DNA of 64,000 nucleotides from a virus. Its lineage: Duplodnaviria > Caudoviricetes. A program made the translations under genes and the position numbers. Below are positions 1-36,260 of this stretch, piece by piece. Under the pieces are notes generated by a model, which did no database searches, was not told the origin of the DNA, and saw only the letters and a program-made list of their open reading frames with translations. How positions within the stretch are numbered: position 1 is the stretch's first letter; each line of letters opens with the position of its first letter. The stretch is from positions 160,001 through 224,000 of IMG/VR virus record IMGVR_UViG_3300031993_000008. One strand, 5' to 3'.

Positions 1-2202
1 AAGGTTACAATTACTGCAACCAATGGTAGTAACTCATCAACCACAAAAGCAGTATCTAAGGAGGTAACCAACTCAAAGGATAGTACAAACTATTCACCTT
101 CTAATTATACAGCAAGTGTATCAATTGGTAATGGTCTTGGTCCTGGTGTAAGTAGTGCAACTGTAACAGTAAGTGGTAGTCATACAGCATATGATTACTA
201 TACTTCTGGTTATTACAATAATTCACATACTGTTACTGGTGATGGTGCAACATGGTCTATTACATCACAGACATTTAACACATCAACTACAATTACCAGG
301 TTCAGTAAATCAGGTAATACTTTGTCACATAGTAGTATGAATAATAATGTTGGTACAGATAAGGTTACAATTACTGCAACTAACTCTGTAAATAGTAGTG
401 GTACAGCAACAGCATCTAAAGAAGTAACCAACTCAAAGGATAGTACAAACTATTCACCTTCTAATTATACAGCAAGTGTATCAATTGGTAATGGATTGAC
501 TGCTGCCGGTGGTAGTGCAACTGTAACCGTAAGTGGTAGTCATACAGCATATGATTACTATACTTCTGGCTATTATGATAACTCACATACTGTTAATGAT
601 GGTGCAACATGGTCTATTACATCACAGACATTTGCTCCTGCAACTGGTGGAAGTTCATCAACCATAACCAGGTTCAGTAAATCAAGTAATACATTGTCAC
701 ATTCATCAATGGGAACAAATGCCGGTACCGACTATGTAAAGATTACAGCATCCAACTCTACAGATAGTAATGCTACTGCAATAGCAGAGAAGAGTATAAC
801 CAATGCAATTATCACAACTCAGAAATATAAGAATACAAGTGGTACAACTGGTTATAATATAACTTATGTTACACCAACTGTATCTATTGGTAATGGTTTT
901 ACTGCTGCTGGTGGTAGTGCAACAGTTACCTGTTCTGTAACTAACAACACAGATTGGTATTATAAATATGACTCTGGTAATTACACTTCACAATATACAA
1001 GTACAGAAGCAGGTACTGCAAAGTGGAGGATAACATCAAATGGTAACAGTAGGTTCTCTGAACCATCATCTGGTGGAAGTACTATAACTGTAGGTGGTTC
1101 TAATGTGACAGTTTATTCAACTGGTAGTGCTGTATCACATAGTTCTATGGGTACTTCTGCCACAACAGACAGTGTTACAGTTACAGCATATAATGTGGGT
1201 GATACAACAAAATCTGCAACAGCAAGTAAGAGTGTAACAAATTCACTTGGTTCTACCAAATATAAGAATACTTCTGGTACAGAGGGTTACAATATAACTT
1301 ATGTTGCACCAACCTGCACATTGACAAATAACCTTACTGCTGCTGGTGGTAGTGTAACTGTTACCTGTTCTGTAACCAATAACACAGACTGGTATCAAAG
1401 ATATACCTCTGGTTCATATACAGCAAAACAGACAGGTACAGAAGCAGGTACTGCAAAGTGGAGGATAACATCAAATGGTAACAGTAGGTTCTCTGAACCA
1501 TCATCTGGTGGAAGTACTATAACTGTAGGTGGTTCTAATGTGACAGTTTATTCAACTGGTACTGATGCATCACATAGTAATATGACAACCAATGCTACAA
1601 CAGACACTGTTGGTATCACAGCATATAATGTTGGTGATCCAACAAAGACAAGTGGTGAGAAGACAGTAAGTATAGGTAATGCTATTACAAATAGTAACTA
1701 TTCACCTTCTAATTATACAGCAAGTATTTCAATTGGTAATGGTTTGATTGCTGCCGGTGGTAGTGCAACTGTATCAGCAAGTGCATCACACAAGGCATAT
1801 GATCTTTATACATCAGGATCATATAACAATCAACACAATGTTAGTGATAGTGTTACTTGGGAAATAACCTCTAATGGAAATAGTAGATTCACCAAGACAA
1901 ACAATACCACCTTATCACATAGTAATATGACTACTAATGCTGTAACTGATAGTGTCACAGTAAAGGCTACAAACTCAACAGATACAACTGCAACTGCAAC
2001 TGCAAGTAAGAGTATAACCAATGCTGTGGAAAGTATTTCATTGGCAGTTAATGGAAAGACTGATGCAACTTCTGTTCCATTTGGTTCAAGTATTGCTTCT
2101 TCAAACATAGTCTTGACAGGAACATATACATCCGGTTCAACTGGAACACTTACACCAAAGGCAGTTTCATCAAGTGATACAACAGTTGCAACAGTATCAT
2201 AA
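1..2202 (+). CDS. Ser/Thr-rich repetitive Ig-like fibre protein, 5' truncated by the window; ends in an incomplete Big_2-type domain
   Basis: Frame is open from position 1 (KVTITATNGS...). Tandem ~120-145 aa beta-rich repeats (SIGNGLTAAGGSATV...SHSSM...D.VTITA.N). C-terminus is SSSDTTVATVS. Confidence 0.75.
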   Translation, partial: KVTITATNGSNSSTTKAVSKEVTNSKDSTNYSPSNYTASVSIGNGLGPGVSSATVTVSGSHTAYDYYTSGYYNNSHTVTGDGATWSITSQTFNTSTTITRFSKSGNTLSHSSMNNNVGTDKVTITATNSVNSSGTATASKEVTNSKDSTNYSPSNYTASVSIGNGLTAAGGSATVTVSGSHTAYDYYTSGYYDNSHTVNDGATWSITSQTFAPATGGSSSTITRFSKSSNTLSHSSMGTNAGTDYVKITASNSTDSNATAIAEKSITNAIITTQKYKNTSGTTGYNITYVTPTVSIGNGFTAAGGSATVTCSVTNNTDWYYKYDSGNYTSQYTSTEAGTAKWRITSNGNSRFSEPSSGGSTITVGGSNVTVYSTGSAVSHSSMGTSATTDSVTVTAYNVGDTTKSATASKSVTNSLGSTKYKNTSGTEGYNITYVAPTCTLTNNLTAAGGSVTVTCSVTNNTDWYQRYTSGSYTAKQTGTEAGTAKWRITSNGNSRFSEPSSGGSTITVGGSNVTVYSTGTDASHSNMTTNATTDTVGITAYNVGDPTKTSGEKTVSIGNAITNSNYSPSNYTASISIGNGLIAAGGSATVSASASHKAYDLYTSGSYNNQHNVSDSVTWEITSNGNSRFTKTNNTTLSHSNMTTNAVTDSVTVKATNSTDTTATATASKSITNAVESISLAVNGKTDATSVPFGSSIASSNIVLTGTYTSGSTGTLTPKAVSSSDTTVATVS
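1001..1561 (+). repeat. Intragenic direct repeat, ~126 nt identical (1001-1126 and 1436-1561)
   Basis: GTACAGAAGCAGGTACTGCAAAGTGG...TTATTCAACTGGTA occurs twice, offset 435 nt. Confidence 0.9.
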
Positions 2203-2214
2203 TGGTCAATATAT

Positions 2215-2222
2215 CATAAATA
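2215..2222 (+). promoter_or_regulatory. CATAAATA putative late promoter
   Basis: Recurring motif upstream of structural/lysis genes. Resembles the T4 late promoter TATAAATA. Confidence 0.7.
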
Positions 2223-2245
2223 ATATAAGAAAAAATATATACAAT

Positions 2246-5200
2246 ATGGCAACAATAACAGGTATAAAAGTTGGTTCAACAAACATTACTGCCACTTATG
2301 GATCTTTAACCAGTAATACAGTTGTTTTGAGTGTTACCGCTTTGAATTTGGGAACAGTTGGTACCATTTCTGGATTGTCAAATCAGACATATACAGGTAG
2401 TGCTATTAAACTTAATCCTACAGTTACGGTAACCGCAACAGGTGTTGGTACAGATGTTCCCCTTGCAAAGGATACTGACTATACTGTATCTTGGAGTAGT
2501 AGTGTAGATTCCACATCTTGTATTGCTGTTGGTACTGTTACAGTTACTGTTACAGGTAAGGGTAATTATACAGGTTCAAAAACAGCAACATACAATATTA
2601 CTGGTGCTACAATTACAGTTAAGACATCTGGTCAGTCATCTCTTATTAACCAGACTTATACATACAATGGTTCTGCCCAGGGTGTTGGTATTGTGGCAAC
2701 AACAACAAATAGTCAGACAGCAACAATCAGGTATAGAACTGCATCAAGTGGTGAATATAACTTGACATCTGCACCACAGATAACAAATGTTTCACAGTCA
2801 CCATTAACGGTTTATTATCAGGTTACAGCACCTAACCATGCTGATAAGACCGGTTCATATACAATTACTATCAATCCCGCTGGAATAACCATACCTACTC
2901 CTACTGGTATCACCAAGACATATGATGGTAGTGCTTATTCAGCATCATTTGGTTCAGTAACAGGTGCATCTATTACCAAATATCGTTATAATACTTCTGG
3001 TGCTACATCATCTTGGACTGAAACTACAACTCTTCCTTCAAGGACATCTGTTGGTACAACAACAGTTCAGGCATACTATACAGCAGATGGTAACCACAAT
3101 GGAAGTGGTTGGTCTTCAACAGCATCAATTGTTATTAATGCTGCTGACTTTACAGTAACTGCCAATAACCAATCATTTACTTGGACAGGTAATGCTCAGG
3201 GTAATGCTATTTCAGTAACTAACTTGAAGGGTAGTCAGACTGCAACAATTAAATATGGTACAACATCAGGTACATATGACTTGACATCTGCTCCAAAGAT
3301 AACCAATGTTTCACAGTCACCATTAACAGTTTATTGGCAGGTAACTGCTTCAAACCATAATACACAGACAGGTTCATATACAATCACTATCAATCCTGCT
3401 GGAATAACCATACCTACTCCTACAAGTAATGAACATATATATACAGGTACAACATATTATGCAACATTCCCTGCTGCTTCATATGCAACTATAACCAACT
3501 ATAGATATTCAACAACAGATGGTTCCGGTTGGTCTACATCAAATACAAACCCGGGTAATTCAACTGTTAGGACATTATATGTTCAGGCATACTATACAGC
3601 AGATGGTAACCACAGTGGAAGTGGTTGGTCTTCAAGTGCAACAATCACAGTAACCAATGCTACAATAACAGTAACAGCCAATAATCAGAGTTACACATAT
3701 AATGGTTCTGCCCAGGGTGCTGCTATTTCTGCATCAACAGTCAATAGTCAGACTGCAACAATTAAATATGGTACAACATCAGGTACATATGACTTGACAT
3801 CTGCTCCAAAGATAACCAATGTTGCAGATTCAAAGACTATATACTACCAGGTTACAGCACCTAACCATGCTGATAAGACCGGTTCATATACCTTGACTAT
3901 AACACCGGCAACACCTACATTCTCATTGACAGGTAGTACCAAGACATATCATGAGGGTAGTGCAGACATCAAGGCAACTGCATCTGTTGCAGGTACAGTT
4001 CATTGGGGAACAACATCCAGTGCTATGACAAGCACAAAGTCTATATCTGCTAATACTGCAACAACTGTGACAAGCAGAACTGAATCTAATGGTGTAGGTA
4101 CAACTACAATTTATGCATACTTTATACCTACAGATAATTCAAATTATAATTCAGTTGGTAGTTCATCACAATATGCACAGTCTGCTGCTGCAAAGATTAA
4201 TGCATCTGGTGATAATGATATTACTGTAAGTGTAGAAGGTACTCTTTATTATACTGGTTCTGCTCAGGTTATTGCAACCATGACTGATCGTGAAGGTGTT
4301 GCTCACTTCACATTGGGTTACAGTACAACATCAAATGGTACAGTAACTTGGGGTACTCAGGATGCAACAACAATTTCAGCTACTAATCCTGGAACATATT
4401 ATATACATTATAAGTTGACCCCAGATAGTAACCACAGTACAACAATTGAAAATAAACAAATTGATGCTACTTCAACTATCAACAATGGTACATTGACAAT
4501 CACAGTAACAGGATATAGTGCTACATATGATGGTTCTGCTCATAATATTGTTGCATCTGGACCTTCTGCAAAGAACCAGGCCAACCAGACCGTTACAGGT
4601 GTTACATATACTTATTCAACTTCTGAAAATGGAACTTATGGATCAATGCCAACACGTACTGCTGCCACTGGAACATCAGCAAATGAAAGTGCAACAGTAA
4701 CATATTGGGTAAAGGCAGATATGGATGGTTATACAACAGCCAAGAAATCATTCACAGTTTATATTGCCAGGGCTGCTAATCCTCTTACAATTTCACCTAC
4801 CACAGCAACTATTTACAATACAACAGGATATAACACAGTTCAGATTACTCCTTCAGGAGCACAGGGCAGTGTAAGTTATTCTTCAAGTGCTACTGGTAAG
4901 GCAACTGTAAATAGTTCTGGTTTGGTTACATATGTTGCTGCCGGTACAGCAACTATAACTGTAACTGCTGCTGGTAATGACAACTATAAGTCTGGTTCAA
5001 AGACCTGTGCAGTTACAACAGTTGTTGATACTGTTACCTCTTATGGTGATATTACAGGTACAATAACCATTACACAGAAGGCAAACTTCCCAGCAGGAGG
5101 TGTAACATTGACAACAAGTAATATTTCCACATATTTCAATTATACAAGTACAGCAGCACAAACAAAAACTTGGGCATCTGGAAATACAACAAGTGGAACA

Positions 5201-5548
5201 ATCACACATACATGGAGTGGTACAAATGTAAGTATTCCATCATTGGGAACATCAGAGACATCAACAGTTACTTCAAGAAACATCAGTTTCACTGTAACTG
5301 CATCTGGTGAGGGAAGCAAGACAAAGAGTGCATCAGTTTCAACAGGTAACCAGGAGGCCAACCCTGTAACTGGAATTACTTTGTCATTGGTAACTGCCGG
5401 AGATTCAACAAATACTCCTAAGACCAGTGTTGCATTTGGTTCATCCTTGAACACAAGGTTGGTGGCAACATATAAGTCTGGTTCAACAGGTGTAGTTTCA
5501 CCAAAGACTGTTACATCAAGCGATACAACTGTTGCAACAGTATCATAA
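2246..5548 (+). CDS. Ig-like repeat (MBG-like/Big_2) fibre protein that starts and ends with Big_2 half-domains
   Basis: ATG at 2246 follows a CATAAATA motif. Contains YTG..I.P.VTV...DYTVS...GT.TVTVTGKGNYTG and YTYNGSAQG repeats. One intact Big_2 (SSSATGKATVNSSGLVTYVAAGTATITVT). Ends TSSDTTVATVS. Confidence 0.8.
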   Translation: MATITGIKVGSTNITATYGSLTSNTVVLSVTALNLGTVGTISGLSNQTYTGSAIKLNPTVTVTATGVGTDVPLAKDTDYTVSWSSSVDSTSCIAVGTVTVTVTGKGNYTGSKTATYNITGATITVKTSGQSSLINQTYTYNGSAQGVGIVATTTNSQTATIRYRTASSGEYNLTSAPQITNVSQSPLTVYYQVTAPNHADKTGSYTITINPAGITIPTPTGITKTYDGSAYSASFGSVTGASITKYRYNTSGATSSWTETTTLPSRTSVGTTTVQAYYTADGNHNGSGWSSTASIVINAADFTVTANNQSFTWTGNAQGNAISVTNLKGSQTATIKYGTTSGTYDLTSAPKITNVSQSPLTVYWQVTASNHNTQTGSYTITINPAGITIPTPTSNEHIYTGTTYYATFPAASYATITNYRYSTTDGSGWSTSNTNPGNSTVRTLYVQAYYTADGNHSGSGWSSSATITVTNATITVTANNQSYTYNGSAQGAAISASTVNSQTATIKYGTTSGTYDLTSAPKITNVADSKTIYYQVTAPNHADKTGSYTLTITPATPTFSLTGSTKTYHEGSADIKATASVAGTVHWGTTSSAMTSTKSISANTATTVTSRTESNGVGTTTIYAYFIPTDNSNYNSVGSSSQYAQSAAAKINASGDNDITVSVEGTLYYTGSAQVIATMTDREGVAHFTLGYSTTSNGTVTWGTQDATTISATNPGTYYIHYKLTPDSNHSTTIENKQIDATSTINNGTLTITVTGYSATYDGSAHNIVASGPSAKNQANQTVTGVTYTYSTSENGTYGSMPTRTAATGTSANESATVTYWVKADMDGYTTAKKSFTVYIARAANPLTISPTTATIYNTTGYNTVQITPSGAQGSVSYSSSATGKATVNSSGLVTYVAAGTATITVTAAGNDNYKSGSKTCAVTTVVDTVTSYGDITGTITITQKANFPAGGVTLTTSNISTYFNYTSTAAQTKTWASGNTTSGTITHTWSGTNVSIPSLGTSETSTVTSRNISFTVTASGEGSKTKSASVSTGNQEANPVTGITLSLVTAGDSTNTPKTSVAFGSSLNTRLVATYKSGSTGVVSPKTVTSSDTTVATVS

Positions 5549-5560
5549 TCATATAAATTT

Positions 5561-5597
5561 TGTTTTCACATTCTCCATTAAGGAGGATGTGAAAACA
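5561..5597 (+). other. 16-bp intergenic stem-loop without a clear U-tract
   Basis: TGTTTTCACATTCTCC-ATTAA-GGAGGATGTGAAAACA, with one G-U pair. Confidence 0.8.
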
Positions 5598-5624
5598 TTA
5601 TAAAAACAAAGAGTTAATAGAAGT

Positions 5625-6590
5625 ATGAGTATAGTAAAGGGTATTAAGGTAGGTTATGCGGATATTACCGCAACATACGATAGTACTACTGCATTATCTG
5701 ATACTGAAGGTCTGACAGTTGTTGCTGTACCACTTGGAGGAATTGCATCTCCAAACAATACAACATATGATGGCAACCCACAGTATCCAACACCCACAGT
5801 AACTGCTACTGTGGGTGGTGAGGTTATTGTTCTTGTCAAAGACACTGATTATACATTATCATATTCAAACAATACCAATACCGGTACTGCAACAGTGACC
5901 GCAACAGGTAAGGGAAATTATAGTGGAGAAGTATCATCAACCTGGACAATCAACAGTGCTGAAATTATTGTTGATGTTTCTGATCAGGAATATACATATA
6001 ATGGTTTATCACAAGGTATTGGAGTTTCAGTATCACTTGTTTCAGGAGAACCAACAATTAAATATGGATTATCATCAGGAACATACAACCTTACAACAGC
6101 ACCACAGTTCAGGGATGTCAAGACATCAGGTACATCATATTACACAGTATATTACCAAGTCATAGCAGAGAACCATACAACCAATGAGGGTTCATATAAG
6201 GTTACAATTATACCTTTGACTGCAATACTTGAGTGGGGAGATACATCTTGGGTATATGATGGGGAACAACATTATACAACATGTGTTGTTAGTAATAAGG
6301 TATATGGTGATGATTGTGTTGTTACATTGTCTGGAAACAGTATTACCAATATTGGTTCAACAACAGTAACAGCAGTGGGATTTTCAGGAACAGATGGAAG
6401 CAATTATAAATTGCCGGTAGAACAGGTTCTTTTGGAGAGAACTCTTACTGTAAGGGCAGGTTTGTTTGTCAAGTTGTCAGGTGTCTGGACACCGGTTAAA
6501 AGAGTATATAAAAAGGTGTCTGGAAACTGGGTTGAACAGGAGATGGATTCTGCATTTAGTACTTCAAAGATGTACAAGAAAATGAATTAA
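5625..6590 (+). CDS. Ig-like repeat fibre protein, probable tip/cap subunit
   Basis: N-terminus MSIVKGIKVGYADITATY. Repeats are paralogous to the upstream gene (DTDYTLSYSNNTNTGTATVTATGKGNY). C-terminal FVKLSGVWTPVKRVYKKVSGNW is a phage-fibre-type motif. Confidence 0.7.
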   Translation: MSIVKGIKVGYADITATYDSTTALSDTEGLTVVAVPLGGIASPNNTTYDGNPQYPTPTVTATVGGEVIVLVKDTDYTLSYSNNTNTGTATVTATGKGNYSGEVSSTWTINSAEIIVDVSDQEYTYNGLSQGIGVSVSLVSGEPTIKYGLSSGTYNLTTAPQFRDVKTSGTSYYTVYYQVIAENHTTNEGSYKVTIIPLTAILEWGDTSWVYDGEQHYTTCVVSNKVYGDDCVVTLSGNSITNIGSTTVTAVGFSGTDGSNYKLPVEQVLLERTLTVRAGLFVKLSGVWTPVKRVYKKVSGNWVEQEMDSAFSTSKMYKKMN

Positions 6591-6638: not shown

Positions 6639-8696
6639 ATGGCAAAACGTTTAAATGATAATGATGTTTTTGGTCTTGTAGATACTGCTGCATCCAATTA
6701 TATTCAGGAAATTTATGATGGTACAAACACTCATGCTGTTGCTGTTAAAAAAGGTATAACCTTCTTTAATGGTAGTGCTGATACCACTGGTGTTGTATGG
6801 AATGGTGTTCAGGAACTTGAGGTTGTTATCCCTACACTTGCTGATATCGTTTCAAACCCTGTAGTTCTTAAGGGTGTAATTAATAACGATTCTCAGATTC
6901 CTTCAACTGCATCAAATGGTGACTTGTATTACATTGGTGCAGATGGTGTTACAATTGATGGTCAGCTCTGTGAGGCTGGAGATATGGCAGTTTATTATAA
7001 TAGTGCTTGGCATGTAATTTCTGGTGAGAATCAGGTTACTATCAACACCTCTGCCGGTACAGTTACAGGTAATGACACAGTATTCTCAATTTCAGGTACA
7101 GCAAAGACTATCCTTACAGTTGAAGGTAAGACTTTGAGTGTTGAACTTGACTATGATGATATAGCAAGTAAGGTTAATGTTTCAAAGGGTGGTTCTGCTG
7201 CTATTTCAGTTGTAAATGGTACAGTTTCTGTTGATTCTATGAATATTGCTCTCGCAAAGACAGCCGGTGTATCACAGGATATTGCAACAGAAAAGACTAT
7301 TGCTCTTCCAACAGCCCTTGCATCTGGTGCAGTTACAATCAGTGAGAGTGTTCTTATATCATCTGACTTCTCATTTACCCAGGGTTCATTCCCAACAGCA
7401 AGTGTAAATACTACTGCTATTTCTATCAATGCTTCAACAGATATTTCAGTTACAGGTACATTTGTAACATCAGTTTCAGCTGTTGGTGGTGTATCTTTTG
7501 AAGAGGGTTCAAATGTAAGTAATGACCTTGCTTTTGTAACTGGTCTTACTTCTGCTTCAGGTACAAATTTTGTAACCGGAATCCGCACATTTGTATCAGA
7601 TGGAGAAACCCCAGATGCTTCAACAGATGTTATATTTGAAATCCCAGGTGCTGTTACTGTAACAGGTACAAGTACATTTGCAACAGGTTTTGGTGCAGCT
7701 GCAGCTTCTGGTGATGTTATTTCATCAGTTTCAGTTGGTGCAGTTACTATTGGTACTGGTACAGACATTGTAACTGGTCTTACTGGTGCAGGTAATTCAG
7801 TTATTACAGGTGTTACATTTGGTGATGCTTCAACAGACAGCACAAGAGAGTGGTTCTATAGTGGTCTCACAGAGGGTAGTGATGTTGTTACTGATGTTAC
7901 TGTTGGCACAGTTTCATTTGTTAGTGGTAATGATACAGCAGGTATGACAGATTCTGCTCTTGTAACCGCTTCTGTAAGTAACCATGTTCTTTCATTCACA
8001 ACTGGTACATTTATGAAACCTGTAAGTATTTCACAGGCTTCTTCTTCAGTTAGTAAGAAGGGATTCACAAAGACAGGTATTTCACTTACTGGATTTAGTT
8101 CAACATCAGATACCTTTACAAAGGGTGGTATCAGTCAGGCTGAAACAACTGTTTCTTATAAGAGTCTTACAACTGATAGTATTAACATTGCTCTTGGTTC
8201 AGCAACCAAGTATGTAGCTGATAAGGCAGAAGATCATGCATATACAGCAACAATGGGTTATAAGAAACTTTCATTGACTGATGCAACAACCTCAACAGGT
8301 TCACCTACACTTACAGGTACAAACATTACAGCTACTATCCCAGCTGAAACAGTTGTTGTTGGACTTAATGCAGGTACACTTCCTTCATTAGAAATTGGTG
8401 CACCATCAGGTACACTCACAGGTTCTGTTGGTACTACATTGGATACATCATCTGTTTCTTGGCTTGCTGTCGCATCTGATAAGAGAAATATTGCTGGTGG
8501 TGATACATATACATTGACATCTAACAGTTCAGCAGAAGGTGTTATCTCTGGTAGTGTAATTTCTGTTGCTGCTGCTGATAACTATGATGTTACAGGTGCA
8601 ACTGTTACAATTGCTTCTGGTGTCTTTGTAACTGATGTTGAAGTAAATGGTTCTACTGCTCTGCCGGTTCCAGTTCTTCAACCAGTGCTCAACTGA
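6639..8696 (+). CDS. Putative tail fibre / virion structural protein (Ser/Thr/Gly-rich)
   Basis: 685 aa. LKGV...P...GDLYY...GDMAVY...W segment typical of phage fibres, FTQGSFPT/AGTLPSL motifs, preceded by CATAAATA. Confidence 0.6.
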   Translation: MAKRLNDNDVFGLVDTAASNYIQEIYDGTNTHAVAVKKGITFFNGSADTTGVVWNGVQELEVVIPTLADIVSNPVVLKGVINNDSQIPSTASNGDLYYIGADGVTIDGQLCEAGDMAVYYNSAWHVISGENQVTINTSAGTVTGNDTVFSISGTAKTILTVEGKTLSVELDYDDIASKVNVSKGGSAAISVVNGTVSVDSMNIALAKTAGVSQDIATEKTIALPTALASGAVTISESVLISSDFSFTQGSFPTASVNTTAISINASTDISVTGTFVTSVSAVGGVSFEEGSNVSNDLAFVTGLTSASGTNFVTGIRTFVSDGETPDASTDVIFEIPGAVTVTGTSTFATGFGAAAASGDVISSVSVGAVTIGTGTDIVTGLTGAGNSVITGVTFGDASTDSTREWFYSGLTEGSDVVTDVTVGTVSFVSGNDTAGMTDSALVTASVSNHVLSFTTGTFMKPVSISQASSSVSKKGFTKTGISLTGFSSTSDTFTKGGISQAETTVSYKSLTTDSINIALGSATKYVADKAEDHAYTATMGYKKLSLTDATTSTGSPTLTGTNITATIPAETVVVGLNAGTLPSLEIGAPSGTLTGSVGTTLDTSSVSWLAVASDKRNIAGGDTYTLTSNSSAEGVISGSVISVAAADNYDVTGATVTIASGVFVTDVEVNGSTALPVPVLQPVLN

Positions 8697-8754
8697 TTCC
8701 AGTTCTTCAACCAGAACCAAATAATGCATAATCAAAACACTTAATATATGATTG

Positions 8755-8789
8755 AAAAGGACTTGGATTTCAAGTCCTTTTCTTTTTTT
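8755..8789 (+). terminator. Intrinsic terminator
   Basis: AAAAGGACTTG-GATTT-CAAGTCCTTTT followed by a T-run. Confidence 0.8.
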
Positions 8790-8799
8790 GTTATATTTA
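8787..8799 (+). promoter_or_regulatory. TTTGTTATATTTA putative early/middle promoter
   Basis: 13-mer found intergenically 8 times, always oriented toward a start codon. Confidence 0.7.
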
Positions 8800-8822
8800 A
8801 TGTATATAAAATATCTTTTAAT

Positions 8823-9866
8823 ATGGAACATAAAAGACTTCAGTTTTTGGTTCCCCAATATAAGGAGACAGAGGATGTTATCAAGTTTCTTCTTGATTCA
8901 ATAGAATGTCAGGTTCTTATTGATAAGAAAGATATAGGTGTAATTATCTGTTCTGATGGTGGGGAATATATACTTGACAGAAATTTTCTTGACAGTTATT
9001 CTTATGATATTGACTATATCATATGTCCTCACAGGAATGTATCTTCAACCAGGAATTCTGCACTTTTATTGTCAGATGCTGATTATATTATGTTTTGTGA
9101 TGCTGATGATGGTTTCTGTAACTTATTTGGAATTAAAATCATATTTGAAAATATTGATATCAGTGACAAGACCAACACCCCATTTGATTTATTGACATCA
9201 AAGTTTTATTGTGAAAGGTCAAGTGATGAAGGACATACAGGAAGTAAAAACACTTGTTCAAAAGATATATCTTGGGGACTTACTATGGGTGATCATAACA
9301 ATATATTCATTCATGGTAGAGTTTATAAAAGAGAGTTTCTTATAAAAAATTTCCTTTATTGGAATGAAAAGATTTGGGCAAATGAAGATAGTTTCTTCAA
9401 TATATCAACAAATCTTTATGCAAAGGATAAAATAAAGGCATTGGATGTTCCTATTTATTGTTGGAGAAGTAATCCACAGTCTGTTACAAATGACCCAAAA
9501 TTTATAGTGAAGACACTTCATCAGTTGATTTATTCTAATGATAGTGTACTTGAAACAATGCTTTTATTAAAAATAAATGAAAAGGAAATTGGAAAGTGTG
9601 CTTTCGATATAATCTGTAAGGTATATCTTGATATGAACAGACCTTGTTGGTATGAGGAAGGAAATAGTGAATATAGAGATATTACACTTAAGACATTACA
9701 ATGGTTCATAAACAAAAGGGGATTATTGTGTGAATGTCTTACTGATGATGAAAAAAAGGATACTCTTCAGAATGCAAGAGGTTCACAACATTATAAAAAT
9801 ATTGAAAGTATTGCATTTAATGATTTTATAAACTTTGTAATGAATTATGGAAAAGAACAGAAATGA
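8823..9866 (+). CDS. GT2-family glycosyltransferase
   Basis: LVPQYK, IICSDG, NVSSTRN, YIMFCDADD (DxD) and NED motifs. Start moved to ATG 8823, downstream of the terminator/promoter. Confidence 0.85.
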   Translation: MEHKRLQFLVPQYKETEDVIKFLLDSIECQVLIDKKDIGVIICSDGGEYILDRNFLDSYSYDIDYIICPHRNVSSTRNSALLLSDADYIMFCDADDGFCNLFGIKIIFENIDISDKTNTPFDLLTSKFYCERSSDEGHTGSKNTCSKDISWGLTMGDHNNIFIHGRVYKREFLIKNFLYWNEKIWANEDSFFNISTNLYAKDKIKALDVPIYCWRSNPQSVTNDPKFIVKTLHQLIYSNDSVLETMLLLKINEKEIGKCAFDIICKVYLDMNRPCWYEEGNSEYRDITLKTLQWFINKRGLLCECLTDDEKKDTLQNARGSQHYKNIESIAFNDFINFVMNYGKEQK

Positions 9867-10845: not shown

Positions 10846-11793
10846 ATGGCTAATGAGATTATAGAATTTGTAAAAACAACATCAGAAAAACTTGATTATG
10901 TGTTGGAAAAGGATGGTGGAAAATATACAAAATCATTCATCCACACTCATGATGTCAATGAGAATGAAACAGCAGATGATCAGTTGTATATTGGTCCTGA
11001 CAGACTTACAGACAAGTTCAATGTAGGTAATTCAAATCTTTCAGATCCTACCAGGAAGGTTGGGGGACTTGATGCATCTACCATAGGACAACTGAAGGAC
11101 AGGAAGATAAGTGAGATACTTATGGACATCCTCAGACCTGATGTCATTGAACCGAGTGTGAGTACTCCTGCAAGTGTGAGTATTTCATATAATAATCCTA
11201 CACTTATTGAGGTGGGTTCAACACTTCCTTCCAAATCAGATATATCATCAGTTATTGATAATGGTGTTTGGTCTGATGAAACACCATATTCTGGAGGATC
11301 CGGTTCTGTTACATTGAATATGACTCCAAACAAATGGGGTACATCTTCAATTGAGGGAAAGTATATTATATCAGGAAGTGTGACATTTGAGGAAGGAGGA
11401 ATTCCAAAGGATAACTTTGGAGATGAGTATCCTGAAAAACAATACCTTGGAGGTACTGAAACATCAAATGAAATCACAATAACATCTATATATCCTATAT
11501 ATATCAATGATGGAGATGACATCACAGTTATGGTGAAACACATTGTTGATTATATTGATGGTGCTGAATTTGAGGTAACCATTCCAGCAGAGATTGAAAC
11601 ACCTGAACCTACAAAGTTTATGATCCAGGTGCCATATGAATTTACAACATTTGAGGTGAAGAAGTACAACCAATTGACAGATAAGTATGACATTGATGTC
11701 CCTATGGTATTTGATAGCAATATGTATATCAGAGAGGATAATACATATACCAATACAACAAGTACCCAATATAAAATTAAGCTGAAGAAGTAA
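10846..11793 (+). CDS. Putative virion structural protein
   Basis: 315 aa beta-rich acidic protein. First gene after a CATAAATA motif, tightly coupled to two giant genes. Confidence 0.5.
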   Translation: MANEIIEFVKTTSEKLDYVLEKDGGKYTKSFIHTHDVNENETADDQLYIGPDRLTDKFNVGNSNLSDPTRKVGGLDASTIGQLKDRKISEILMDILRPDVIEPSVSTPASVSISYNNPTLIEVGSTLPSKSDISSVIDNGVWSDETPYSGGSGSVTLNMTPNKWGTSSIEGKYIISGSVTFEEGGIPKDNFGDEYPEKQYLGGTETSNEITITSIYPIYINDGDDITVMVKHIVDYIDGAEFEVTIPAEIETPEPTKFMIQVPYEFTTFEVKKYNQLTDKYDIDVPMVFDSNMYIREDNTYTNTTSTQYKIKLKK

Positions 11794-11799
11794 TAATAT

Positions 11800-14700
11800 A
11801 TGTCAGGAAAAACATTTACCGGTGATATAAAATTCCCAAGTAACTTTGATGTCCAGACCACCAGGCCTTTGGATGTTAGGTTGGTTGTGGATTCAAAAGA
11901 AGACTTGACAAATGGTTCAATAGAAGCACCATACCAGGGTATGGTTGTAAATATCAAGGGCACTTCAGAACTCTGGATTCTTTTAACTGATGGTATTGAG
12001 AACTCAAAGAATGAAGAGAACTGGAAACTTGTGACAGGTTCAGGTGGTGGATTGTCAAAGTATTCTATCCCAGTTATGACTCCTGAAATGATGGATGAGG
12101 CAATTGCAGATCCAGATATTGAGTTTGGTGATTCAGATGAGTGTATTATTATAGATGAAAATCATAATCTGGATGATGACAATCCAGATATATTCTATAA
12201 GGGTATCATCCAGGATATGTACAGATCAATCATAGCACTTCAGGCAGAAGTGACAAGATTGAAGAATACATTTGAGTCTGGTATTGTATCATATAAGAAT
12301 AGAGATACAAGATTTGGTGATGTTGCTGGAGATACATCTGTTGATGAGGAAGAACCACTGTGGGCTGTGGAACCTGGCTATCTTTCATTGGTGAGTGACA
12401 ATCCTAACTTCATCACAACTTTGGATGTGAGAGGTAGTGCATCTTTCATACAGAGAGGTATTGAAGAAGCATCAATTGATGTGAGTGTTGATGACCAGTT
12501 GACATTTGTTGGTGGTGAATATATGTTTTATGATGGTCTGACACCGGATGCAGAACAGGCAAATCTCACACTTTATAACATCAAAGATTCAAAACTCATC
12601 ACATATCTTGTTACAGATAAACCAGATATTAAAATAGAACTTATACCTGTTGCTAATGAGTACAGTATATCTGATGTAAGAGAAGTGAATTTTGCATCAT
12701 TGTTAGGAGGTATCAGTACTACAAATAAATATGGAATCTGTATGATTCTCAGCAGAAAACAGAAGACAGATGATGAGACATACAAAGGTTTCAATTATGT
12801 ATATTTCTCAATAATAGATTACAACACAAATAAGAAGTTACGTGAGGGATATTTAAATAAGAATAGTGATACATTGTCATCTGACAGAGTTTTGTTGGAT
12901 GACAGATATGCAATACGTTCACTTGCATTTAATGGAAGACATAGTGCTGAAAGCAGTAATATGACCCTTTACAGAATGAAGTTCTATACAAAGTATGAGG
13001 ATTTCAGTTCTGGTTGGGAAGAGAGGGAAGATGAAATTATATCCAACCCACCAAGTGAATATGATACAACATATGAAGTTGCACACATTGCCATTAGGTC
13101 AGTCAAGAATTTGGAAATGCTTGATGAGATTACTGATAAACTTCTTGACAATGAGTTGATATGGAATAAGGATAACAATGCCCTTTATATCAAATCTGAT
13201 GGTAAGATTTGTAGAATTGGATCTAAGTCCAGTGATGATGATGAACATAAAAAAGATAATAATATGACAGACAAAGAAATTATAGAAGCCCTTGAGAAGA
13301 TGGGTATCATTGTGAACAATCCTGTTTACAGTGAGGATGAATATGGTGAAGATACTGTACTTGAGTCATTTGGTAACATTTCATTGAAACCAATTGCTGA
13401 TGTTACATTTGTCAACCAGGATACCAATAAGAGGTTTACATTTACTGTGGACCCGGAAGGTAATCTTGTGGGTAAGGACAAATCTGCACAGACTATTGAA
13501 GAGTATTTGAGAGAAACAGAACAATCATCCAAATATGATAATACTACTGACTATAAAGCAGTAAGAGGTTTCTCTTCTGACTATCTCTTTATGAAGACCA
13601 ATTCAAAGAATAATATATTCATGACAGATGATGCCGGCAAATTGTCAGACAGGTTGAGAATCTCATCATTCTATGCACCAATCATTACAGATGATGTACA
13701 TGGATGTACACATTCATTTGTTGAATTGGAAAATACATCTGAAGTTGATATACCATTGACAGGTGTATATCTCCATTTCTATGATGCATTTACTGATACT
13801 GCTCATCATCTTGAACTTGATGGTGTTTGTAAGGCAGGTGGAACATATCTCATCAGAGGTGCAAAACATGCTGAACTTGATGATGCTTCTGCATTTATCA
13901 AGGTGAAGACATATGATAAGGAGTGGTATGAGAATGGTGAACTTCTTTCATTTGAACAGGTTGCAGTCAAGACAGTTACTGTTGATGATGTGGAAGAAGC
14001 TGCTCCTGATAGTCCTGTAAAATTTGCATATAGATTTTGCTTGACATATGGTCTTCCCAACTTGGCACCAACTGATAGATTGGTTATGGAAAATTCAGGT
14101 TCTGAAATTGGAGGAGTCACATATGATGCTTCAACATATCCAAATCTCATTATTAATCCAAGATTTATAGATGGTTGTTCATTCTCAACAGCATCAAGTA
14201 TTGCTGGATATACAAATCCTTGGTATGCAAATGGTAAGGGTGGTGTTGGTATTCAGATCAAAAAGAATACAATGTTCAGACTTATGTTTGCATTGGATCC
14301 TGCAAAGCAGGCATTTAATGGTTTCAACGGAAAGGACAGTTCAAGAATAAGATACAATAAGGCAACAGATATCCAGGTCCTTGATTTAAATAAGGAGTTC
14401 ATAGGATATCCTCACAGTAATGAAACTATTAAGATAGATAGATATACACCAAAGGCATCCTTTGAGAATAGGAATGTAATGACAGACAAGTCACAACTCA
14501 ATAAGGAGAAACCAAATATGGTTACCTGTTCATTTGGTCTTGATGTGTATAACACAAGATGTTTCAACTGGATTTCTTGTGGTACATTTGATGAGTATGT
14601 ATGGGTAAGACCACAGGGTTCAACAGCATGGACTGGATTTCAGTCATATACAAAGGTTTCAAAAAACAATGTTGAAGATACTTCAAAATCAATACGTAGG

Positions 14701-16860
14701 AAAGAATATCTGATGGATGTGAATAATGCAGGATATGCAAGGATGATTAACAGATTCCCTGGAAACAATGTTCTTTTCACATCACATAAATGTGTCCTTG
14801 TGTTCCCGGATGCATTAGAACCAACAGTATATGAATATGTTGTTGGTAGACCTGATAAGGATGGTAAACCTGATTTTGAACATACAAACAGTATATATAC
14901 ATTTACATTGTACCCAAGGTCATATGAAGGTAGGGTATATCAGGTTACTGACCAACAGGGATTCCACTGGATTGAATACCAGGTATGGGCTGCAGCTGCA
15001 GAGTTCCTCAATACAAAGATTGCTCAGGAAATTGCTGAAATAAATTCAACAGCAACTACAAAGGTATTCCCTATCCTCATCAATACTGGTGATATGACTC
15101 AATCTGGTGCCCGTGTTAATGAGTGGTTGGATTATTACAATGGTGGTGTAAGTTTGTTTAATCATCTTGAACAAATGAACTGTGTGGGTAACAATGACCT
15201 TTGTCCTATCAACCCAAGAGATCTTGGTACTGGTAATGATAATGACAAGTCAAGTTCACACTTCTTCCATTATTTCTACTGCTTTGATGTAAGGGATACT
15301 GAAAAGTGTAATGAAGAAATTCCAGATCCAGAAAAACCAAATGAGAAGATTTATACAGGCAGTAAGTTCTTTACTGGTGAGAGTCTTGTTGTAAAAGCAC
15401 ATACTGGACAGTTTGGTAGTGGTGATGAACTTGTTGAGATAAATGTTACAGAAGATAGATTTATCCCATCATTCTATTATTTCAAGACAGGTAAGGTTCT
15501 GTATTTGATAGTTAATTCTGAAATACCTAAATCTAACTGTATGTATTGGTTTGGTCTTTGCTCAAATAATGCATATGTCAATATTTATACAGGTATTGAG
15601 ATTTCAGCAAATGGTGCATATGCTGCTACTGATAATTGTTTTACACCTCTTTATGAAACAATGTATGCATGGTTATCAGGTAATCAGACCAGTGGTGTGA
15701 ATGACAGAAAGGTTGTTGTTGCAATGCATGAGATGCCTTTCACTGTTATAACCAATGAATCTCTGTTTAAGGGAACAACAAAGAATATACCTTGTACAAG
15801 AAATTTCCCAACAAAGAAGGGAAGACTTGGTTCAAATACCAATCAGTTGGACATCAATGAGGATAGGGGTATTTTCTGGTGTTCAAGACTTCTTGAATAT
15901 TTTGGATGTAAACTTGTAATTGGTGGACATAAGCACACATATGCTCTTTCATATCCTATTAAGGAGAAATATACTTGGAAACTTGGTGATGCTGCTGCTG
16001 TAGATAGTAAGACACAAATTAAGACTATGCTTCCAACTCTTGAAGATGAGGCAGGTGTAAATCCACAGTGCTTGATTTCATGGAATATTGAAGCAACAGA
16101 TAGCAATAAGGAAGAGTATAACTTTACTGGTGATACTGCATTGAACAGTACAAAGACACCATATATTCCTAACAATCTTTACAGTGAGTATGGTAAGGAT
16201 ATAACTGATGGTTCAACAGATTTTATCCGTTGTTGTACACCTATTGATGATTATAATGAAAAATATGATGGATTTGTATCTTATTCAATGTGCCAGGCAA
16301 CTGGATATAAATTGAAGTCAAACAAGGAACTTCCTGCACCAACACAGGTATTCTCAAAGATTATACCTATGACTACATATAAAAAGAGTGATAGTAATGC
16401 ATTTACAGATTCACCAAGTGGTGACCAGTTATATCCTATGTATAGTGTCCTTGAGTTTGAATATGATAGCAATGGCAAGGTGAATGGAATCAGTGTTACT
16501 ATGAACCGTATCACAAGTATCTTCAAGGCAGATAATAAGGATAAGTTTGACCAGTTGAGTTATGGAACAAAGGCAATGAAGAGACAGTGCCTCTGTACAT
16601 TTGAAAAGGAAGATTGTAATGGATATGGAACTACCAGTCAAAGACCGGCAAATCCAGCCAATGGATATCTTTATTTTGACATCACACTTAATAAAGTAGT
16701 ACAATATCAGGTCACAACTGCTGAAAGTAAGTGGATAGAGGCCAGAATAAGAATGTATGGTAAGTGGTTGTCAGAGGCCGATGCAAAAAGTAGATTAGAT
16801 AATTACCTGGCAAATCCTACCACTGTTGCAGACAACAGATATTTACATATTAAATATTAA
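11800..16860 (+). CDS. Large protein with a lamin-tail-like domain and a calcineurin-like/purple-acid-phosphatase-type metallophosphoesterase
   Basis: HSFVELENTSEVDIPLTGVYL (LTD-like). TDQQG, NTGDMTQ, VGNNDL, MHEMPF and GGHKHTY metallophosphoesterase motifs. Confidence 0.75.
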   Translation: MSGKTFTGDIKFPSNFDVQTTRPLDVRLVVDSKEDLTNGSIEAPYQGMVVNIKGTSELWILLTDGIENSKNEENWKLVTGSGGGLSKYSIPVMTPEMMDEAIADPDIEFGDSDECIIIDENHNLDDDNPDIFYKGIIQDMYRSIIALQAEVTRLKNTFESGIVSYKNRDTRFGDVAGDTSVDEEEPLWAVEPGYLSLVSDNPNFITTLDVRGSASFIQRGIEEASIDVSVDDQLTFVGGEYMFYDGLTPDAEQANLTLYNIKDSKLITYLVTDKPDIKIELIPVANEYSISDVREVNFASLLGGISTTNKYGICMILSRKQKTDDETYKGFNYVYFSIIDYNTNKKLREGYLNKNSDTLSSDRVLLDDRYAIRSLAFNGRHSAESSNMTLYRMKFYTKYEDFSSGWEEREDEIISNPPSEYDTTYEVAHIAIRSVKNLEMLDEITDKLLDNELIWNKDNNALYIKSDGKICRIGSKSSDDDEHKKDNNMTDKEIIEALEKMGIIVNNPVYSEDEYGEDTVLESFGNISLKPIADVTFVNQDTNKRFTFTVDPEGNLVGKDKSAQTIEEYLRETEQSSKYDNTTDYKAVRGFSSDYLFMKTNSKNNIFMTDDAGKLSDRLRISSFYAPIITDDVHGCTHSFVELENTSEVDIPLTGVYLHFYDAFTDTAHHLELDGVCKAGGTYLIRGAKHAELDDASAFIKVKTYDKEWYENGELLSFEQVAVKTVTVDDVEEAAPDSPVKFAYRFCLTYGLPNLAPTDRLVMENSGSEIGGVTYDASTYPNLIINPRFIDGCSFSTASSIAGYTNPWYANGKGGVGIQIKKNTMFRLMFALDPAKQAFNGFNGKDSSRIRYNKATDIQVLDLNKEFIGYPHSNETIKIDRYTPKASFENRNVMTDKSQLNKEKPNMVTCSFGLDVYNTRCFNWISCGTFDEYVWVRPQGSTAWTGFQSYTKVSKNNVEDTSKSIRRKEYLMDVNNAGYARMINRFPGNNVLFTSHKCVLVFPDALEPTVYEYVVGRPDKDGKPDFEHTNSIYTFTLYPRSYEGRVYQVTDQQGFHWIEYQVWAAAAEFLNTKIAQEIAEINSTATTKVFPILINTGDMTQSGARVNEWLDYYNGGVSLFNHLEQMNCVGNNDLCPINPRDLGTGNDNDKSSSHFFHYFYCFDVRDTEKCNEEIPDPEKPNEKIYTGSKFFTGESLVVKAHTGQFGSGDELVEINVTEDRFIPSFYYFKTGKVLYLIVNSEIPKSNCMYWFGLCSNNAYVNIYTGIEISANGAYAATDNCFTPLYETMYAWLSGNQTSGVNDRKVVVAMHEMPFTVITNESLFKGTTKNIPCTRNFPTKKGRLGSNTNQLDINEDRGIFWCSRLLEYFGCKLVIGGHKHTYALSYPIKEKYTWKLGDAAAVDSKTQIKTMLPTLEDEAGVNPQCLISWNIEATDSNKEEYNFTGDTALNSTKTPYIPNNLYSEYGKDITDGSTDFIRCCTPIDDYNEKYDGFVSYSMCQATGYKLKSNKELPAPTQVFSKIIPMTTYKKSDSNAFTDSPSGDQLYPMYSVLEFEYDSNGKVNGISVTMNRITSIFKADNKDKFDQLSYGTKAMKRQCLCTFEKEDCNGYGTTSQRPANPANGYLYFDITLNKVVQYQVTTAESKWIEARIRMYGKWLSEADAKSRLDNYLANPTTVADNRYLHIKY

Positions 16861-33663: not shown

Positions 33664-34548
33664 ATGCCCAGTATAACAATTCTCAATCATACACAGAATA
33701 TGACTCCGAGAAAATCCGGGGAAATAAAATACATCATTCTGCACTATACAGCATCAACAACTTCAGGTTCCGGTGCTGCAAGGAACTGTGTGACCACATT
33801 GGATTCAAGGGGTTATTCAACAGACTTTGTTGTTGATGATTTTGAAATACTCCAGTTTGCCGATGACCCAAAGAGATGGGCAAGCAAGGCCTGCCAACCC
33901 TGGAACAGCAGTGGAACAGTGGCAGGAAAAAATGCTAATAATAACAATTCGGTTTCCATTGAAATGTCATCAACACTTGTTGGTGGAAAAAAATCAGACT
34001 GGGAGGCCAACAACCCAAACTTCAAGTTCACAAATGAGGTTCTTGAAAATACTGCATATCTTTGCAGGATGTTGATTTCCAAATACAACATACCCCAGTC
34101 AAACATCATCAGACACTTTGATATAATGGGTAAGAGTTGTCCTGGTATTATAGGATGGAATACTGGTGAAGGATCCAACAATGATATTCTGTTCCATTCT
34201 TTTGTTGAATCCCTTTATAAGAATCTTGACCCGGCATTAGCACAGGCTGATTATAAATATGATAATTACAAGCCCTTGAAACCCCAGGGTGTTTCATATG
34301 TCAATGATAATGGTGAGACTGTTAATATACCCAATGTTCCAAACAAGGTGTCAATGCTTGCTTCTGCAAAAAAGGCAAATGATAATGTCCTGAAACAGGA
34401 TGATTCAAGGAAAGCAGAATTTGAATCATTGAGAAATACTATGGCAACAAACTCTCCACAGATGGGAAGGGAGATACTCATCACTTCAGAACTGTATGAT
34501 TCAAACATATTGAAGGGAAAACCAGAAACAAAAAAAGAGAGGTTGTAA
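33664..34548 (+). CDS. N-acetylmuramoyl-L-alanine amidase (Amidase_2) with a C-terminal extension
   Basis: YIILHYTA, SVSIEM and IIRHFDIMGKSCPG zinc-amidase motifs. Confidence 0.85.
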   Translation: MPSITILNHTQNMTPRKSGEIKYIILHYTASTTSGSGAARNCVTTLDSRGYSTDFVVDDFEILQFADDPKRWASKACQPWNSSGTVAGKNANNNNSVSIEMSSTLVGGKKSDWEANNPNFKFTNEVLENTAYLCRMLISKYNIPQSNIIRHFDIMGKSCPGIIGWNTGEGSNNDILFHSFVESLYKNLDPALAQADYKYDNYKPLKPQGVSYVNDNGETVNIPNVPNKVSMLASAKKANDNVLKQDDSRKAEFESLRNTMATNSPQMGREILITSELYDSNILKGKPETKKERL

Positions 34549-35372: not shown

Positions 35373-36260
35373 TTAAAGAGTAAGAATCATATCAATGAGT
35401 TCAGGTTGTGGGAAGACATCAAACTTATCCTTCCTGATTGATCCATGACTCAACAATCCCTTGACCTTACCTTTGTAAGCATCAGGGTGCATCTCAAATG
35501 CCTTGAACTCTCCTTCCTTCTTTATCCATTCATAAAGACCTGAATGGAGGTCGATGTTGTCCCTGTTGGCAACATAGAGAAGAAGATCATGAAGTACATT
35601 CAACTGTTTGTCAGAATATCTGTGCCAGTCCTTGTATCCTCTGAATTTTTCTTTGAGAGTTACAATCTGTTCAGGCATCACAGCGGTGTTCACATATGTT
35701 CTGTTATTCTTGATGTAACCCATATTACAGAGTTCAATACCTACTGAATGGGTGTTCATATAAGATGAACCTGATGAACCTATGTGGTATCCCTGGTTTC
35801 CTGCCGGATATGACCTGATGAGTTTTCCATCATAGGTACTTCTACTGTCAGTTGTCCTCTGTCCACCTATCACAAACTCTGTTGCAACTTTACCAAGACT
35901 GTCCTTTGCCCAACTGTCAACAACCTGCTTGGGGTTATCCCAACCGGCAGTGTGGTGAAGGATGATGTAACTGTTCAGGTATTCACCATTCAGGTATTCC
36001 TTTTTGGGAAGATGATACTCCTCAATGTCAACAAATGTCGGAGGTGTTATGATTGGTGTCAGGTCTGTATCAAATTGAGGTATGAGTTTCTCAAAGGTCT
36101 TCTTTCCCACAATACCATCAGCCAAAAGACCATTTGCTTCCTGGAATTTTTTAACAGCTGCTTCTGTTCCCTTTCCGAAAATACCATCAGCTGTGATATC
36201 AAGAGCTTTTTGAATTTGCTTTACCTCTTCTCCTTTACTTCCTACTTTATATACAGACAT
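35373..36260 (-). CDS. Endolysin: peptidoglycan-binding domain + Amidase_2
   Basis: GSKGEEVKQIQKAL..ADGIFGKGTEAAVKKFQ..NGL.ADGIVG, then IILHHTAG, SVGIELCN and SHGSIRKDKFD. Confidence 0.9.
   Translation of the reverse strand: MSVYKVGSKGEEVKQIQKALDITADGIFGKGTEAAVKKFQEANGLLADGIVGKKTFEKLIPQFDTDLTPIITPPTFVDIEEYHLPKKEYLNGEYLNSYIILHHTAGWDNPKQVVDSWAKDSLGKVATEFVIGGQRTTDSRSTYDGKLIRSYPAGNQGYHIGSSGSSYMNTHSVGIELCNMGYIKNNRTYVNTAVMPEQIVTLKEKFRGYKDWHRYSDKQLNVLHDLLLYVANRDNIDLHSGLYEWIKKEGEFKAFEMHPDAYKGKVKGLLSHGSIRKDKFDVFPQPELIDMILTL

Follow-up and report, generated by a model that had tools for sequence, protein, structure and literature searches.

The stretch of DNA analysed here, 64,000 bases long and hereafter called the window (positions 160,001 to 224,000 of the IMG/VR virus record IMGVR_UViG_3300031993_000008), contains part of a gene cluster in which an immunoglobulin-like (Ig) domain of the Big_2 family is repeatedly cut between neighbouring proteins: the 'socket' forms the C-terminus of one protein and the 'plug' the N-terminus of the next. 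The split is real and not a chance resemblance, as profiles made from relatives only pick these genes alone, and the cut recurs in 16 phage loci. The cluster comprises five neighbouring genes in the order X, Y (both upstream of the window), A, B and C, and we propose that their products are separately translated late proteins that would join up into a single long, bead-like fibre in which every joint is a Big_2 domain rebuilt in trans from a C-terminal socket and the N-terminal plug of the next protein. The chain would run from a head (X or Y) through A and B to C, with X and Y acting as paralogous socket-only heads that compete for the 'type II' plug of A, with 'type I' joints connecting A to B and B to C, and with the plug-only protein C probably fixing the fibre to the virion via its tryptophan-containing C-terminal domain. 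That the halves bind in trans we regard as probable; the defined chain with C at its base is the arrangement we favour, with less assurance. The features of the cluster that lie in the window are the following.

1-2202, plus strand: 3' part of gene A, which encodes a shaft segment (full gene 1918 residues, genome 156446-162202).
2026-2199, plus strand: socket of A, the first two thirds of a Lig-type Big_2 domain, running up to the stop codon (relatives' socket profile, E = 3e-8).
2203-2245, plus strand: spacer 1, 43 nucleotides, AT-rich and unstructured, carrying CATAAATA at 2215-2222.
2246-5548, plus strand: gene B, an 1100-residue shaft segment with plug and socket.
2246-2344, plus strand: plug of B, the last third of a Big_2 domain (short strand and hairpin; relatives' plug profile, E = 1e-12), used in the fusion test.
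4781-4972, plus strand: intact Big_2 domain inside B (PF02368, residues 846-909, E = 1.4e-7).
5363-5545, plus strand: socket of B (relatives' socket profile, E = 4e-16), used with the plug of C in a complex prediction that gave weak support.
5549-5624, plus strand: spacer 2, 76 nucleotides, with a 16-pair RNA hairpin at 5561-5597 and no U-run after it.
5625-6590, plus strand: gene C, 321 residues, comprising plug, beta-sandwich domains and a tryptophan-containing C-terminal beta domain (structure model with a predicted local distance difference test score, pLDDT, of 91).
5625-5726, plus strand: plug of C (E = 2e-8); in the model, strands 10-18 and 24-32 form a hairpin.
6453-6587, plus strand: C-terminal domain of C, with two invariant tryptophans, found once per locus, on whichever protein ends the chain.

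The socket and plug profiles, from which this genome was left out, were searched over its 564 open reading frames (ORFs). Four ORF ends matched the socket profile (those of B, X, A and Y), all in one cluster, and three ORF starts matched the plug profile (those of B and C and, with a weak match of E = 0.014, that of A), with no other noteworthy match. The sockets of A and B are homologous (64% identity over 47 residues; 78% over 100 nucleotides at the DNA level), as are the plugs at the starts of B and C. The cut at the same residue at A|B and B|C, with spacers of 43 and 76 nucleotides, had been recognised in a preliminary description of this DNA, and its coordinates hold. The chain drawn there from A to C is also supported as far as its two joints go, but it was too short: gene A, whose start lies upstream of the window, itself opens with a plug (type II, followed by an intact Big_2 domain, many beta-rich repeats and the C-terminal type I socket), and X and Y (723 and 662 residues, 35% identical to each other) would add a second class of joint.

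The cut is kept at 28 junctions in the 16 loci. There are 227 homologues of gene C, and the plug stands at the start of 119 of the best 120; across phages the C proteins are 44-81% identical. The loci follow a common grammar of one or more socket-only genes, zero to two plug-and-socket genes and, to close, just one gene that combines a plug with the tryptophan domain. The shafts of relatives measure 619-1996 residues and are encoded by zero to two genes, and the heads range from 72 to more than 2000 residues, have unrelated N-termini and often occur several to a genome. One phage (L091) has a single 3375-residue chain with the plug first and the tryptophan-containing domain last; L014 and L018 are further single-chain forms. 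Relatives of C were found neither in single-sequence scans of viral contigs nor among GenBank phages, and when longer fused forms of C were sought, bacterial surface proteins crowded the results. As a separate observation, two socket-ended fibre proteins (P0135 and P0138, residues 1-90) open with 4Fe-4S ferredoxin-like motifs (Pfam Fer4), which is odd for a virion fibre head. Gene B itself varies: in one strain (run X4), some 1040 bases of the internal repeats are missing (window 2688-3731), a change of shaft length through loss of repeats.

The domain that is split is of the Lig subtype and not of the subtype of B's intact copy, since the socket profile matches the Leptospira proteins LigA/LigB and the joined profile matches LigB. 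A profile of 42 sockets matches LigA/LigB and bacterial teneurin-like Big_2 repeats, the match stopping at the cut loop, and the profile of the joined halves aligns over positions 5-109 with LigB 5-96 (E = 0.002) and matches the teneurin-like repeats at E = 7e-15. Intact Big_2 copies in both A and B pass Pfam; the one in B, put forward earlier as an in-window control, is present, but its different subtype sets it apart from the domain it was to stand for. In the model of C the plug consists of a loose N-terminal stretch and a two-strand hairpin, about 33 residues or a third of the domain, and the sockets (about 60-80 residues) make up the first two thirds. The plug is predicted to complete the domain, as had been suggested, but it is a short strand plus hairpin rather than a single strand. 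Within the family, the joined profile found no clean unsplit copy, and only in P0149 is a socket followed by the first plug strand in the same chain. In L006:2-3976, L008:2-2314 and P0149 the chain continues from the socket into one plug-like strand and a further domain of about 130 residues, a layout that hints at a second cut position within the same domain.

We scored direct fusions of the halves on a local profile built from 29 intact bacterial domains (84 positions), the only profile on which they were scored. The A-B fusion reached 19.1 bits (positions 15-82 of 84), as compared to 11.8 for the socket, 6.8 for the plug and 10.1 for the swapped order; for B-C the corresponding values were 18.9, 11.4, 7.0 and 9.8 bits. 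Additive scores of this kind are what is expected of collinear halves, and the gain is modest. In a complex prediction, the B socket paired with the C plug scored 0.58, the best control scoring 0.00, and the runs agreed in at least 96% of contacts with a partner pLDDT of at least 79. Of 80 solved complexes 58 reached the mark used, as did 2 of 110 mismatched pairs; among the pairs that reached it, scores of 0.60 or lower were obtained by 7 of the 80 solved complexes and by both mismatches. The prediction lends weak support, and halves of a known fold may pass by likeness. For Y|A, an in-frame read-through built for folding only gave a model with a pLDDT of 71.6, which a fold search aligned with LigA (Z 7.4, root-mean-square deviation 2.7, 96 aligned residues) and with LigB (Z 7.0, 95 of 95 residues), both halves being covered in each case. 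Socket and plug are thus predicted to form a Big_2 beta-sandwich together, and the head-to-tail linking by completion of a split Ig domain put forward in the preliminary description is supported, at the level of prediction, by profiles, fusions, the complex prediction, the Y|A model and the gene grammar.

Y|A is the third joint and, being type II, of a class distinct from A|B and B|C. The sockets of X and Y fall on a branch of their own with those of two relatives (100/98, long branches), and in both of these relatives the next gene opens with an A-like plug, so that a type II socket precedes a type II plug in three phages. Because the X and Y sockets are both type II, two heads face the single plug of A. 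The plugs sort by position, the nearest neighbours being C-type for 14 of 14 and B-type for 11 of 11. Stand-alone genes of 72-78 residues consisting of a socket and a short tryptophan-rich tail also occur (L010:12017-12235, L116:15490-15708 and L118:2108-2344), and two of them lie some 4.5 kb downstream of gene C; they are possibly caps for free plugs, and the tail may supply the first short plug strand.

As for polarity, we infer that C forms the base of the fibre and that the socket-only proteins form its tip, a placement we hold to be clearly the likelier of the two. C is invariant, single-copy and always last, as an anchor that must fit a conserved virion site should be; the socket-only proteins are placed at the tip because they are variable and several per genome. 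The reverse had been proposed, with C as the tip cap, but C with its conserved tryptophan domain looks like the base. The proteins would be present in the virion, standing in a defined order rather than as a polymer, and would serve in adhesion. At roughly 4 nm per 100-residue domain, a chain of head, A, B and C with about 4000 residues would measure in the order of 150 nm. For the head domain of Y a fold search gave weak jelly-roll leads only (scores about 0.8, template modelling (TM) score below 0.45), and since these are weak, a 'carbohydrate-binding tip' is unsupported.

The strongest competitor keeps the same joint but lets B self-polymerise into a pilus-like extender of tunable length and/or places C at the distal tip. 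It draws on the likeness of the A and B sockets, which are sisters in this genome (100/97), and on the B socket joined to B's own plug, which scores 19.8 bits on the local profile, on a par with the cognate pairs. In addition, B has a late promoter of its own and is followed by a conserved hairpin, a stem-loop of the kind that sets subunit ratios in other operons (PMC4423207), which could yield more B than C. Relatives, however, change length by genes, through shafts of different size and number or one very long chain, and the positional sorting of the plugs speaks against free exchange, although orthology alone could explain it; variable, multiple socket-only heads would also make poor anchors, as a C at the tip would require. 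Self-polymerisation of B, which had been suggested from the start, is possible but unsupported, and we consider this alternative as a whole unlikely.

Several points weigh against the chain with C at its base, or against the joints themselves. The anchor role of C's last domain is read from its conservation and position only, and this domain has no relative in Pfam, among named PHROGs or in the PDB; two unnamed PHROGs match it weakly, with their N-termini. As the A and B sockets are sisters, nothing obvious would enforce the order A-B-C. A fusion scores roughly what its two halves add up to, and for several relatives it does not exceed the better half. Pfam Big_2 (PF02368) matches neither the halves alone nor in-frame read-throughs with linkers of 8-18 residues. 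Furthermore, on the local profile the fusion of Y or X with A brought no gain in score, and the Y|A model was built on an alignment that included type I rows and stays below a Z of 8.

A known tryptophan-bearing anchor was considered for C. The attachment domain of T-even gp38 is a three-helix bundle with a tryptophan at each apex (PMC6851490). A gp38-like anchor is excluded: the last domain of C is all beta in the model, and the match is weak (TM 0.56 over 38 residues).

Genome-wide, CATAAATA behaves like a late promoter, 49 of its 62 copies lying within 80 nucleotides upstream of the start of a same-strand ORF, which bears out the earlier reading of the copy in spacer 1 as a late-promoter motif. 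The motif lies inside 9 of 11 spacers of the A|B type, and because it sits within spacer 1, B can be transcribed without A's socket. A hairpin of -21 to -32 kcal/mol is found in 13 of 14 spacers preceding gene C, as compared to none below -6 kcal/mol in the other 14 spacers; the one in spacer 2 has a z-score of -6.7, and all 11 consensus pairs of the pre-C hairpin show changes on both sides. It is ruled out as an intrinsic terminator, as there is no U-run and a terminator scan did not find it. Stem-loops set subunit ratios in other operons (PMC4423207), and by analogy the hairpin may reasonably be read as an element for processing or stabilising the RNA, through which the B:C ratio would be set. 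Taken further, the system might be a programmable, chaperone-free, pilus-like fibre in which orthogonal split-Ig joints fix base, shaft and head, B repeats tune the length via the B:C ratio set by promoter and hairpin, and several heads fit one fibre without a change of DNA; we offer this as a tentative idea that is more doubtful than not.

It is improbable that the genes are fragments of a once-continuous gene, with the halves as non-binding left-overs and the proteins working apart or via other surfaces. Ig-like repeats are often shuffled in phages, the single-chain forms exist and Pfam does not recognise the halves, all of which would suit such a history. Yet both halves are kept across phages whose C proteins have diverged widely, a conservation that extends to both joint classes and to several junctions within a genome, and a third of a domain on nearly all C proteins would not persist without a partner.

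More improbable still is that translational bypassing, frameshifting or splicing carries a single polypeptide over the junctions. No residues are lost at the cut relative to the intact domain, the frame of B is open through spacer 1, and spacer 2 holds a strong hairpin. Against this, the spacers of the 28 junctions range from 24 to 95 nucleotides, their frames are split 12/8/8 and the downstream frame is interrupted by stops at 27 of them. Bypassing of the T4 gene 60 type needs matched codons and a conserved gap; here take-off and landing codons match at 3 of 28 junctions (all AAA), none of them in this genome. Strains from three other studies differ in spacer length by -2, +1 and +1 bases, which changes the frame, whereas a 6-base loss within A keeps it. 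There is no Rfam intron match at the locus, and many spacers are 24-43 nucleotides long and unstructured. The varied frames, the strain indels, the promoter inside the spacer and sockets remote from plug genes (X here; L091 and L116) argue for separate proteins, as do the ragged socket ends with C-terminal overhangs of variable length. Sequencing error is excluded, since contigs from the three other studies span the junctions and show an identical arrangement, and since 16 loci share the cut; the preliminary description had likewise argued against error. Finally, covalent joining of the docked halves by protein ligation or an isopeptide bond, of the sort that thin fibres under load often use (for example Gram-positive pili), has equally little going for it, as the sockets have no invariant residue, the protein ends show no intein or sortase signature and the overhangs vary.

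The principle of the proposed chain is already known from the one-joint case of phage Tuc2009 (PMC4742702) and from donor-strand complementation in pili; new here would be the serial split-Ig joints, the two joint classes and the two heads. In the Tuc2009 baseplate tripod, a 25-residue hairpin of BppU completes domain 2 of BppA, the composite having a titin-like Ig fold, and the joint attaches an accessory carbohydrate-binding protein (PMC4742702). The likeness is that a hairpin of one virion protein completes the Ig-like beta-sandwich of another, here by prediction. Tuc2009 has one joint, made by a C-terminal hairpin on a trimeric baseplate protein, whereas here an N-terminal plug would complete a Lig-type Big_2 domain in three serial joints of two classes, with two alternative heads. 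BppU and BppA chains were not among the matches in our profile and fold searches, and the phage studied here has a tail sheath gene.

In chaperone-usher pili the incomplete Ig fold of a subunit is completed by the N-terminal extension of the next, and an adhesin caps the filament (PMC10104325). The predicted fibre shares the N-terminal donor, the socket-only subunit at the tip and the polarity, but the donor of those pili is a single strand of about 13 residues, as compared to about 33 here, from a different Ig family, and their pilins are single-domain, as compared to segments of 321-1918 residues. No chaperone or usher Pfam family was found in the neighbours scanned, and B and C open with the plug and have no signal peptide, so that the fibre would work like chaperone-usher pili without being one. 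The type V pili of Bacteroidia also use strand exchange, with a C-terminal donor strand, lipoprotein precursors and activation by a protease; here the donor is N-terminal, starting at the start codon, and there is no lipoprotein leader. The closest intact domains are those of Leptospira LigA/LigB by profile and fold (PDB 8gyr, 2mog, 2mqg), and the Big_2 repeats of a bacterial teneurin-like protein (9ifo) are likewise close by profile; in both, the domain is continuous in one chain. The podophages A1002, GP4 and VP1 have chain-like fibres in which small dimers are strung on a rope protein via sheet augmentation (PMC13730344); these too are multi-protein phage fibres held by added beta-strands, but no domain is cut across genes there. 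Our literature search, in which few subscription journals were covered, found no paper on serial split-Ig fibres.

If the head-A-B-C chain exists, it explains how jumbo phages build very long Ig-repeat fibres from swappable segments, and heads would vary within one burst. Gene-by-gene annotation would then hide whole domains at protein ends. With about 60 plus 33 residues the joints are small, and they come in at least two classes; they are candidate natural protein couplers.

The source record (248,382 bases; CheckV completeness 67%) is that of a T4-like jumbo phage, whose genes for the major head protein, the portal and the tail sheath are of the T4-like kind. The capsid protein shares 44.5% identity with that of a 462-kb uncultured phage and 33% with those of Prevotella Lak phages, and from these relatives we would guess at a host among the Bacteroidota. 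Among sequencing runs, the best match is to a bovine gut metagenome; this run may come from the source sample and was for that reason kept out of the independent evidence.

Around the cluster, a glycosyltransferase family 2-like gene (window 8748-9866) follows directly and is kept in most relatives; its product could glycosylate the Ser/Thr-rich fibre. A 72-residue gene before X (genome 151986-152204), which relatives also keep as the opening gene of the cluster, shares an N-terminal motif with a 685-residue protein encoded after C (window 6639-8696) and a 1361-residue protein (window 59083-63168), and this motif is maybe a second docking peptide. The gene at window 10846-11793 lacks Big_2, and its homologues L004:15407-16750 and L008:15256-16518 carry intact copies. 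Next to it, window 11800-16860 encodes a 1686-residue protein with weak lamin-tail and metallophosphoesterase matches, kept downstream of the cluster in relatives. Elsewhere, a stand-alone intein-like gene (genome 143124-143795; Pfam Intein_splicing) lies beside nrdD and is also present in L123 and L124, and two amidase/endolysin-like genes are found on opposite strands at window 33664-34548 and 35373-36260.

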